64,000 nt of DNA from Blasia pusilla (lineage: Eukaryota): positions 48,360,001-48,424,000 of the forward strand of contig CM114271.1 in assembly GCA_050084515.1 (NCBI GenBank), given 5' to 3'. The notes under the pieces were generated by a model. The model ran no database searches and was not told where the DNA came from. It was given only the letters and a program-made list of their open reading frames with translations. Positions 54,401-57,400 of this stretch are shown one piece after another; the first letter of the stretch is position 1; every line of letters starts with the position of its first letter. Both the position numbers and the translations under genes were made by a program.

Positions 54401-57400
54401 GCCAATCCCATGAGTGCCCGAACTCTACTCACATTAACCGGACAAGGAATAAGTGCAATAGCCTCCACCTTTGCTTGCTGAACTCCCAAACCACCTGGAT
54501 AGATCACATGACCCAAGTACTCAACATCCTCATGGAAGAACTTACACTTTCTTGGATGCAAACGTAGACCATGAGCTTTCAACCGCTCAAACACAATCTG
54601 CAAATATATCTGATCCTCCTCCACCGTATTACTGAACACCAAGATATCATCAATATAACACTGAACAAAATCCAACCTTGCTAGGATCCTATCCATCACT
54701 CTCTGAAACTCAGCACGTGCATTCTTCAACCCAAAGGGTAAGAATTTCCACTGGTACAAACAATCCTTGCCATGAGAGTTGACACCCCAAAATGTTGTCT
54801 TGGCCTTGTCACTCTCTCGAATTGGCAACTGATGGTATCCTGCCCAACGATCCAAAGTACTGAAAATCTTTTCCTATCCCACCACATCAAAGATCTCCTT
54901 AGGTGTAGGCATGGCATACCTATCGGCCTTGGTCTGCCGATTGATAGGACGATAATCTCCACACATCCGCCTATCGGTGTAGTTGCCATGCACATCCTTT
55001 TTAGCAGGCATGAAAATGGCTGATGCATACTCTCCATGCGACAACTCCACTAACCTAGCCTCCAAAAGGTCCAACGTCCTACTCTGAATCAGGTCCCTCT
55101 CCATATCACTATATTGGTAGGGACGACGAAAGATTGGCGAATCACTAGCCAAATCAATCCGTATACCGGGTCCAACCAAAGCACCCAACTCCTTCATGCT
55201 AAAGGCAAAACAACTCCTATAAGCACGTAGGAATTGTGTCAAGCGTCGTTTCTCACCTCCCCTCAGCTTGGGCCAAGTAATGGCTCCCAAGTCTCCTCCA
55301 CTGGCACACTAGAGGGAGAGGACGATGCCATTGGCTGCTAGGCAACCCCCTCACAAGATGGTACACCCTTAGCTACACCATCATCTGAGCAAATAACTTC
55401 TCTACCAGTATGAGCAACTAAATCCACATGCCCATCCATTACATCCCATTTACTCCAAGGATGCAAAATACTATTCTCCTTGCCCCCAACCGATGTCTCT
55501 ACCGTCCCGGTAGCCATCGAGCTCATCACAAGGGGTGGAAGACCCATAGACAGTCCGAAGTCGACGCTGCTCGGCCATCCCAAGACTCAAAATCCAGGTC
55601 AAACAATTCAGGTCCATGGCCTGACCCAACACATGACGTCGTGAAGCCTAAAAAATGGAAGCAACCGCTGTCACACTAGTAGCAAATCCCATCGCACGCT
55701 CTCTCTCATCAGCGTTAGGCTCCACCAACTGTCGCACATGAGAATCCCATACAAGCCCGGGACCACCTTCCCTGTAGGCATGTGACGAGGGAAAACTCAC
55801 AAATGTGGGTAGTGCCAGCCTAGGCTGGCCCACACGGTTCACCACTGCCATGGGTGACCAATCAATACCCCTCACCACTTGAGAAAGTCGCCCAATATCC
55901 AAGATACTATCCAATGTAAGGCAGGGATCCCACTGCACTACATCATATGGTCGACGTAGAACCTCCCTAGGCAACAAGTTTGTCCACCACAAGCGTGGAC
56001 GATGTGTACGCGAGCCAACTCCCACTGCATCCAAAAACACCGCTGGTCCAATCCAAGACCGCACCTCATGAACACTCGCCATCATCTGGGTCCGAGTGTC
56101 ACCCAACAATGGAACATTCTCAAGAATGTATGCTAGAGCACGTGCCTGATGAACCTAAAGATGTCGTAACACCTGTAACATCTCCCAAAACAATCGAGAC
56201 CTAGGGTTGTGTAATCCCTCACCACGACCACGTGTATGACCCTGACATGGCCATCCAGCAATCACCAAATCCACAAGACCAACCCTCTCAAGGTCCTGCC
56301 CTCCCCCCCCCCCCCAACAATGCAATGTGTGATGGCAAAGCACGCTGGTACCCACGAATAGCTGATGGCCGCAACAACTCAGGATATCTCCGCATCAACT
56401 GAACGATATGTCGGGATGAGACTCTCTGGGCCATCTCATCTCGCTCCACATACACGTATATCCGCACAAGAATATAGGCCTGCAACACTACAGCCAAACC
56501 AGTGCTAATCCCACCCAGGAGATCTAACACACAAATGCCCTCCGACGGATACTGCCATACAATGGGTGTAGTATCCAAAGGGGATAACCCAACTAGACCA
56601 GAAGTAGGAGTCCGCCCTAGGGTCTCCTCTTCCTCGTGAGGTATAATAGCCTCACACCAAGCCTCCTATTGTAGTGCACCCCCTGAACTCCAAAGTGGCA
56701 CATCCAACGATGAGGATGCCACTGCTGCAAAACTAGGGACCTCCTCTACCTCCTCATGCACAGGAGAATCCATAGCAGAAAGATTACCCTCCAAAAAGTC
56801 TCCTGGCTAAGTGACTACTCCACTAAAAGCAACCACAGATGCTAACACCGTTGGGGAAGACCCTTGTGGTCGAGCCCCATAAATAAATCTCATAGGAACC
56901 TGGCTCATACATCCATCCCCGGACTGCCAACTAGGTCTATAAGACGCTGTCTCACTCCAGTAGTCCATCTGAAAACCCATTGGGTACAATACTGCTCCTC
57001 CAACTAGTACATCATACGACTCGGCTAATGTGACCACTGCAGGTACTCCCAACCGGGAGCTATCAGTTGCATGATCTGGTCTCAATTGTACAGACAAATT
57101 CTCCTATGTCATGAATTGAGACCTATCATTGGCTCCTCCAAGTGATGTTTGAATCTCGAATGGGCAAGGCTTAAGCTCTCACCTCCGAATTCCCAAACCA
57201 ATACATGCCGCCTTTCCCAACATCAAAGGTTAGGCACCAGAGTCTAACAAGACTCTATCTGGTCTATACACCTGTCCTGTAGGACTCACCAATCGGAATA
57301 TCCCACTTCGGTTGTCCAACATCCATACACCACGTGTAAGCCTCTCACGATCAATGGCTGGCCGGGCTCGTAATGCATCCATCTTCGCTGCTGCTGCCTG

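Follow-up and report, generated by a model that had tools for sequence, protein, structure and literature searches.

DNA methyltransferase (DNMT) domains carried by transposons are known from few lineages only, and the purpose of the enzyme in them is a question still unanswered; since hosts fight transposons chiefly by cytosine methylation, a transposon equipped with the enzyme presents a paradox. In its main text and figure legends, PMC5890265 (de Mendoza 2018) describes DNMT-bearing retrotransposons from dinoflagellates and from the charophyte Klebsormidium nitens. The SymbioDIRS-Dnmt3 domains of Symbiodinium methylate CG de novo in yeast and are, in that account, the only retrotransposon DNMTs with demonstrated activity of this kind, and the DNMT of the K. 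nitens element, KnitGypsy-Dnmt3, is reported to be under purifying selection. The authors name methylation of the cDNA, protection against deaminases and self-restraint as possible roles and call the role unclear. Here we analyse a window of 64,000 nucleotides from the land plant Blasia pusilla (assembly GCA_050084515.1, contig CM114271.1, positions 48,360,001 to 48,424,000), which contains on its minus strand, at about 51483-61079, a Ty3/gypsy-like element (copy D) with a C5 cytosine methyltransferase domain inside pol. We read this stretch, with a probability of about 0.8, as the methyltransferase domain of a decayed gypsy-like copy from a bryophyte branch of the Gypsy-DNMT3 kind, and propose that it derives from an active enzyme that methylates the element's DNA. 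We are highly confident of what the domain and the element are; our proposal that it acts chiefly on newly made DNA of the element itself is only tentative, at rather less than even odds. The kind is already published, and what is new here is the extension of its host range to land plants, liverworts and Sphagnum.

Like KnitGypsy-Dnmt3, copy D carries a DNMT3-type domain in a gypsy pol open reading frame (ORF), directly before the reverse transcriptase (RT). It shares with that element the repeat order A-coding region-B-A-B, a feature given for DIRS elements and KnitGypsy-Dnmt3 in the legends of Figs 1e and 4c of PMC5890265, and also purifying selection on the DNMT, with Ka/Ks <0.2 reported there and ratios of nonsynonymous to synonymous differences (pN/pS) of 0.36-0.41 found here. 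The two differ in that the present host is a land plant, in a DNMT identity of only 38% and in abundance, as few copies are reported in K. nitens whereas the family looks abundant in this host. With SymbioDIRS-Dnmt3 the element has in common a DNMT3-type domain in pol and the A-coding-B-A-B repeats; SymbioDIRS-Dnmt3, however, is a DIRS element with a tyrosine recombinase in an unrelated host, whereas the family of D has an rve-type DDE integrase and gypsy RT and RNase H. Neither PMC12344493, which places DNMT3 within retrotransposons of streptophytes and dinoflagellates, nor the preprint 10.64898/2026.05.21.726589, which speaks of 'streptophytes (Gypsy-DNMT3)', names a bryophyte or other land-plant host in its accessible text. 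'Marchantia' and 'PHD' are likewise absent from the main text of PMC5890265, and land-plant DNMT retrotransposons go without mention in the accessible parts of PMC11982613, PMC9516144, PMC6453930 and PMC9985172. To this extent, and in literature searches directed at land plants or at names of the element, no land-plant description came to light, as the initial annotation of this DNA, made from its letters alone, had surmised when it called such elements known from dinoflagellates and a charophyte and not well described in land plants; the supplements of PMC5890265 (Data 1, Figs 13-14) and the supplementary trees of PMC12344493 may list bryophyte cases.

The domain in D occupies 55555..56566 (minus strand), as delimited by motifs, alignment, PF00145 and relatives. 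It presents motifs I (LDLLGGISTG, 56498-56527), II (YVYVERDE, 56435-56458), IV (AGWPCQGH, 56236-56259), VI (ILENVP, 56110-56127), VIII (GSRTHRPRLWWTNL, 55975-56016), IX (ERERAMGF, 55684-55707) and X (LGQAMDLN, 55606-55629) in the normal, unrearranged order, unlike plant DRM, whose motif order is described as rearranged in the main text of PMC5890265. The protease motif LLDSGA lies upstream of the domain and the RT motif YIDD downstream. The placing of C5-methyltransferase motifs between protease and RT in D and in a second copy, A, and partly in a third, C, which the initial annotation had proposed with an extent of 55600-56560 in D, is borne out by motifs and by tblastn, and the extent was a good frame. 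It had also stated that D retains PCQ and ENV, and so it does; the domain itself, however, is no longer open, with a single frame change at about 56305-56314 and two stops (56155-56157, 55648-55650). Its four open pieces align end to end along the full-length domain of relatives, and in tblastn the Marchantia polymorpha protein P0161 matches the protease-to-RNase H part of D through four collinear segments, of which three have E=0. When a 168-aa open piece of the domain (55648-56154) was compared with 1.84 billion representative proteins, 628 matched at E<=1e-3; of these, 311 reached 1e-10 or better and 16 reached 1e-30 or better, with 1.7e-63 as the lowest E value. Identity of the DNMT to D is 71-75% for M. 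polymorpha proteins and 38% for that of K. nitens (E=1.2e-23).

A profile match, which the initial annotation had suggested as a check on a frame-corrected consensus, was also found, here with scores for D and A that refer to unaltered pieces or to translations with stops read as X. PF00145 reached 18.4 bits on an unaltered 79-aa piece of D, below the 22-bit gathering cut-off, 22.7 bits on D 55591-56304 with its two stops as X, and 35.0 bits on copy A 11599-12387 treated likewise. No Pfam family was found on the unaltered 168-aa DNMT piece of D or on the 104-aa and 103-aa DNMT pieces of A and C. Eleven of the 12 matching relatives scored 27.1-45.5 bits, and P0056, at 20.1, fell under the cut-off.

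Comparison of the window with itself revealed three further copies of the family of D. Copy A, of a diverged subfamily, lies on the plus strand at about 9993-17732; its DNMT (11471..12387, plus) was located by tblastn of P0161 at 58% identity, begins with motif I at 11471-11497, runs in a single frame from 11599 on with seven in-frame stops, and keeps ENV (11851-11868), while at 11716-11733 'WPC' is followed by a stop in place of the Q of PCQ. The ~1.35 kb between DNMT and RT of this copy (12388-13736) has no match to the polyprotein of relatives and is presumably an insertion. Copy C (about 40190-43959, plus) retains the C-terminal half of the DNMT (40749..41347, plus), in which ENV reads ENVL; tblastn matches it to residues 497-694 of P0161 only, so that the other half, and with it motifs I and IV, has been deleted. 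Copy B (30207..32520, minus; 70% identical to D by blastn, and matched by tblastn of P0161 residues 911-1190) comprises only part of the RT with RNase H, integrase and PHD finger, and is cut off upstream of the RT part, without a DNMT. The copies are 62-71% identical at the DNA level, with the DNMT, where present, in equal position, and 54-72% identical at aligned codons, which marks them as old subfamilies. The methyltransferase is thus an integral, propagated part of pol in this gypsy lineage; shared position, continuous relatives and constraint all agree with the initial annotation, which had held that the domain spread with the element and was no one-off capture.

In all four copies G and T are frequent on the sense strand, with a GC skew of +0.21 to +0.26 and third codon positions of 34-36% G, 33-37% T, 11-15% C and 14-18% A (ranges 52229-59406 minus, 9993-16793 plus, 40190-43959 plus and 30207-32520 minus); the rest of the window has no such skew, and the G/T-rich sense strand is a strand-asymmetric trait of the family.

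Constraint was assessed on codon pairs between D and each of A, B and C, taken from tblastn alignments, where every base entered only once, in its best-scoring alignment; differences were counted by the Nei-Gojobori method. For the DNMT, pN/pS is 0.36 (0.30-0.42) between D and A and 0.41 (0.33-0.49) between D and C; the corresponding values are 0.32 and 0.42 for RT, 0.23 and 0.35 for integrase and 0.48 and 0.50 for the protease region, and the same codon pairs shifted by +1 base gave 0.75-1.08, with 0.75-0.84 for the DNMT. At 0.66-0.74 pS is near saturation, so the true dN/dS is lower still; protein-guided alignment favours conserved codons and decay after insertion raises pN/pS, and more weight belongs to the contrast among domains than to any single ratio. 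Between subfamilies the DNMT is constrained to a degree comparable with RT and integrase, and the dN/dS-type comparison that the initial annotation had suggested gives no sign of neutral decay of the domain relative to them.

As to the type of methyltransferase, a search of sequences in the Protein Data Bank (PDB) with the relative P0009 returned 29 matches at E<=1, every one of them DNMT3A, 3B or 3C (best 6u8p_A, 1.8e-10) and none DNMT2. An AlphaFold model of the DNMT of P0167 from Calypogeia, of moderate confidence (mean predicted local distance difference test score, pLDDT, of 68.3 from a 21-row alignment), had 87 fold matches at E<=0.001; among the matches listed all 33 are DNMT3A/B/C, the best at E=3.1e-9, with a template modelling (TM) score on the target of 0.56-0.62 for chains holding the catalytic domain alone. 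Sequence and model together assign the domain to the DNMT3 type, with DNMT3 enzymes as its nearest characterised relatives. It resembles host DNMT3 (animal DNMT3A/3B/3C, plant DNMT3) in its nearest solved sequences and folds and in the motif order I to X, but differs in having neither PWWP nor ADD, in its seat between protease and RT, in a PHD finger ~1000 residues downstream, behind the integrase, and in an identity of only ~18-21% in the fold alignments.

Catalytic residues were counted in 219 domains of relatives, those among 229 that reach 230 aa (the other 10 being dropped), divided by domain order into a class 1 (protease, DNMT, RT), a class 2 (RT-RNase H, DNMT, integrase, with or without PHD) and an unclassified remainder. 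The motif IV cysteine is kept in 32/33 class 1, 133/133 class 2 and 50/53 unclassified domains, and the motif VI glutamate in 33/33, 133/133 and 51/53 respectively; the Arg-x-Arg of motif VIII, and likewise motifs IX and X, persist in almost every relative and also in D. A replacement of Pro by Glu gives WECQ/ECQ for PCQ in 11/33 class 1 and 75/133 class 2 domains, all of which keep the cysteine.

Organisms are named for 28 of the 78 matches longer than the query at E<=1e-3, namely 19 from M. polymorpha, 3 from Calypogeia fissa, 1 from Riccia sorocarpa, 4 from Sphagnum and 1 from K. nitens. Both M. polymorpha proteins that hold DNMT and RVT_1 together, P0161 and P0171, have the DNMT before RVT_1, and P0109, a continuous predicted protein of 2188 aa, has the same order of protease, DNMT and RT. 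The K. nitens protein P0119 is collinear with P0109, which is a complete class 1 polyprotein, through the DNMT and into the stretch before RT, and its residues 466-529 match the ORF of D directly upstream of RT (E=1e-8), which indicates that the published charophyte family shares this order.

For a maximum-likelihood tree, 76 DNMT rows were used, namely 3 pieces from the window and 73 of the 229 fetched domains (all named ones, all of class 1 and 22 random unnamed ones of class 2, unnamed unclassified domains being omitted). The tree, made by a quick method without a mixture model, is unrooted, has no outgroup or host DNMT3/DRM, and includes the window rows as partial sequences; it groups D, A and C in a 23-row clade with all liverwort and Sphagnum sequences (SH-aLRT, a likelihood-ratio branch support, of 99), within which A and C pair (98). 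Eleven M. polymorpha rows form a clade of their own (99) that leaves out D, A and C, and K. nitens and Closterium fall outside the bryophyte clade of this unrooted tree. The bryophyte branch may share its origin with the K. nitens elements or may go back to a separate, second capture, with a related host gene as the source.

The analysis also brought to light a second architecture, RT-RNase H-DNMT-integrase-PHD, in which the DNMT stands between RNase H and integrase (P0034, P0042, P0056, P0293 and others), which occurs in chlorophytes and metagenomes, and whose only named host is Haematococcus lacustris, with four proteins. Among the first 223 fetched proteins, 52 belong to class 1, 53 to class 2 and 118 present a DNMT alone. 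D is 35-45% identical to the second-architecture proteins in RT-RNase H, 35-41% in the integrase tail and 32-40% in the DNMT, and their DNMTs form one clade (98) that is nested among class 1 under midpoint rooting. On these sequence comparisons a single lineage whose DNMT was relocated within pol fits better than two captures. One may go further and envisage an old gypsy clade, spread through the green lineage with a chromatin toolkit of its own (a DNMT3-type writer and a PHD reader), in which the writer was moved within pol to give PR-DNMT-RT in streptophytes and RT-RH-DNMT-INT in chlorophytes (PR, protease; RH, RNase H; INT, integrase), and which, abundant and transcribed in bryophytes, may still methylate its own copies or the host genome; we regard this wider scenario as speculative and more doubtful than otherwise.

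Stop-to-stop frames and three-frame translation of the minus strand, with relatives as guide, give the pol of D as PR-DNMT-RT-RH-INT-PHD. The initial annotation had this order right as far as the integrase, and noted neither the PHD finger nor that the terminal repeats depart from ordinary long terminal repeats (LTRs). On the minus strand, gag lies at 57853..59406 (tblastn of P0158 residues 1-469, E=0), with two CCHC knuckles by pattern match (58228-58266 and 58129-58170) and in-frame stops at 58344 and 57855. The protease region, at 56807..57763 by tblastn of P0161 and P0158, has LLDSGA at 57233-57250 and five in-frame stops (57232, 57181, 57106, 56809 and 56668). The RT (54025..55293; Pfam RVT_1 E=4.7e-25) has YIDD at 54634-54657 and is 78-80% identical to M. 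polymorpha P0161 and P0171; it is followed by RNase H (53602..54024; Pfam RT_RNaseH_2 1.8e-29, and RT_RNaseH) and by the integrase (52523..53596; tblastn of P0056 residues 1166-1620, E=5.7e-100), which has seven in-frame stops. Pfam rve was found on the corresponding integrase ORFs of copies A and C, and Integrase_H2C2 in relatives; no Pfam family was found on the unaltered ORF pieces of D for protease, gag and CCHC. The order of protease, RT, RNase H and integrase by coordinates, the gypsy-type RT and RNase H and the DDE integrase together define a gypsy pol. In all, D has 19 in-frame stops (2 in gag, 5 in the protease region, 2 in the DNMT, 3 in RT-RNase H and 7 in integrase-PHD) and at least 5 frame changes, two of them in the linker before RT besides the one in the DNMT. 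Copy D is dead, and its DNMT has decayed no more than the neighbouring domains.

The pol of D ends in a PHD finger (52229..52522, minus; Pfam PHD 33.7 bits against a cut-off of 24, E=3.6e-8), a region 41-44% identical to its equivalent in class 2 relatives. Copy A also has a PHD finger, at 16359-16793 (plus; Pfam PHD 17.2 bits). Chromoviruses are gypsy elements with a chromodomain behind the integrase. The family of D resembles them in having a chromatin reader at the C-terminus of the integrase, and differs from them in that the reader is a PHD finger and in the additional methyltransferase. It also differs from the EpiLTRs, which, in the accessible text of 10.64898/2026.05.21.726589, carry a DNMT sister to DNMT4, an adenine methyltransferase and a chromodomain.

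The ends of D present the repeats A1, coding region, B1, 148 nt, A2 and B2, in the order A-coding-B-A-B on the minus strand. A1 is the 200-nt 5' terminal repeat (60880..61079), placed by gapped alignment to A2 (51588..51810), which is ~94% identical to it over 180 nt and has 23 extra bases; B1 (106 nt, 51959..52064) is 92% identical to B2 (51483..51588), which forms the 3' end of the copy and abuts a (GA)n run at 51371-51482. An 11-nt inverted match (ACTCAAAGAAC against GTTCTTTGAGT) stands directly after A1 and directly before the core of A2. A search of D for ordinary LTRs found none, the 200-nt A being all that is common to both ends, with no B at the 5' end, which may be truncated. Such an arrangement is unusual in an element that encodes a DDE integrase. 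By eye no tRNA-type primer site was recognised in the ends of D, and no target site duplication could be called there. Copy A has a B1/B2 pair at 16969-17088 and 17615-17732, 87% identical, and lacks its 5' part; a repeat shared between the 5' and 3' sides was found in neither A nor C. A near-perfect inverted duplication (61510-62315 and 63203-64000) adjoins the 5' end of D and continues past the window's edge; its arms, of 83-366 nt, are 93-100% complementary, with ~890 nt between the innermost ones.

None of the sequencing runs listed as containing the stretch is recorded as RNA. Transcription was followed in three raw RNA-seq runs from one study, chosen by species label, of each of which ~6-12% was read. 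Reads with at least 92% likeness to 51400-61100 numbered 3216, 3022 and 3460 per run and covered all 30 bins, with a depth of 21-68 over the DNMT bins (55612-56583). Only 1, 1 and 3 reads per run were at least 99% alike to D, so that the RNA comes from close paralogues. Read starts cluster at 56311-56315, where D changes frame, which suggests that the expressed copies differ from D at this site. First mates are 10-100 times commoner on the plus strand, which with the usual type of stranded library means the element's sense (minus-strand) RNA. A joint from 52701 to 53693, with eight letters of other sequence at the junction, appears in 16, 30 and 46 reads per run and indicates that some transcripts derive from a copy deleted in the integrase. 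Two further joints occur in all three runs, from 60926 to 51922 (6-7 reads each) and across a skipped 59387-60029 (1-11 reads), for which differently built paralogues, splicing and artefacts are all candidates. The DNA run X1 contains 160,895 contig pieces with at least 92% likeness, a figure that indicates an abundant family and is not a copy number.

Several of these observations, together with some from the literature, weigh against an active enzyme directed at the element's DNA. D cannot encode a working enzyme, given its 19 stops and at least five frame changes, its own Pfam support is marginal (22.7 against 22 bits), and the RNA does not stem from D itself, depends for its orientation on the assumed library type and includes the transcripts with a deleted integrase. 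The pN/pS values suffer from near saturation of pS and from a protein-guided alignment that favours conserved codons, and the tree is without an outgroup. The Pro to Glu change in many relatives might affect catalysis, and in the yeast assay of PMC5890265 no methylation was seen with the domain of KnitGypsy-Dnmt3, a result that its authors call inconclusive.

Under the proposed reading, live elements would make the DNMT within Gag-Pol, to be released by the protease or left joined to RT. Using S-adenosylmethionine, the enzyme would act on cytosines of the element's new double-stranded DNA, in the particle or at integration, so that new insertions would arrive with the host's heterochromatin mark, and the PHD finger might read the histone H3 tail and steer integration. 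Methylation of the cDNA, self-marking and host mimicry had been among the conjectures of the initial annotation. The same conserved catalytic residues would also serve an enzyme acting in trans on host chromatin, at the integration site or genome-wide, where it might seed sheltering heterochromatin or tune silencing. The PHD finger in the same polyprotein suggests dealings with chromatin, the abundance of the family in X1 is in keeping with this idea, and effects of retrotransposon DNMTs on host methylomes are discussed in PMC5890265; however, the seat of the DNMT beside RT is no less compatible with an enzyme that works on what RT produces, and the K. nitens methylome is described in the same text as not unusual. 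We consider action in trans possible but unlikely.

Loss of catalysis, with the domain kept as a DNA-binding or scaffold module like DNMT3L or in a structural role in the polyprotein, could account for both the yeast result for KnitGypsy-Dnmt3 and the Pro to Glu change in the PC dipeptide. Human DNMT3B, however, failed in the same yeast assay (PMC5890265, main text), which makes that negative inconclusive, and since nearly all relatives, like D, retain the cysteine, the ENV glutamate, Arg-x-Arg in motif VIII and motifs IX and X, a non-catalytic domain is improbable. The enzyme might instead methylate RNA, with a tRNA primer or the genomic RNA of the element as substrate. Methylation of RNA is raised in the main text of PMC5890265 for a DNMT borne by a long interspersed nuclear element (LINE), and the strand-asymmetric make-up of the four copies hints at one-strand processes; yet the exclusively DNMT3 assignment of the nearest solved relatives, with no DNMT2, and of the listed fold matches renders an RNA substrate very improbable. 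That the domain is a chance likeness, an assembly chimera or a host DNMT3 pseudogene inside one element, as the sub-threshold first-pass Pfam match on a single piece of D might have suggested, was rejected as having next to no probability, in view of E values down to 1.7e-63, the same position in copies 62-71% identical, continuous proteins with the domain in Sphagnum, in K. nitens and in three or more genera of liverworts, and purifying constraint. Methylation of the element's own new DNA by a DNMT3-type enzyme remains the reading that we tentatively prefer.

This land-plant element has diversified into subfamilies under selection on the enzyme, and it has close, nearly intact relatives in M. 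polymorpha, a tractable model in which they are annotated only as hypothetical proteins. The role of methyltransferases borne by retrotransposons thereby becomes approachable by experiment. Counts of bryophyte DNMT genes may include transposon copies.

Between the transposon copies lies a gene of the GH3 family (Pfam GH3, GH3_M and GH3_C) on the minus strand, in ORFs at 27303-27875, 25850-26830 and 24948-25604. Its closest named relatives are from Marchantia paleacea and Riccia fluitans (58%), Calypogeia fissa (56%) and Riccia sorocarpa (55%), and identity to the vascular plants listed is mostly ~44% (range 33-45%). All four of these closest species are liverworts, which points to a liverwort as host; M. 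polymorpha itself is an improbable source, as its DNMT rows form a clade apart from D, A and C and the best identity to a named protein is 75%. Besides the run abutting D, (GA)n runs occur at 33642-33772, 34204-34298 and 35981-36067. Remains of other transposons lie at 36784-38477 (plus) and 8617-8859 (minus), which by eye comprise a LINE-like endonuclease and RT and a copia-like gag piece, and a separate RVT_1 match is found at 49811-50437 (plus).

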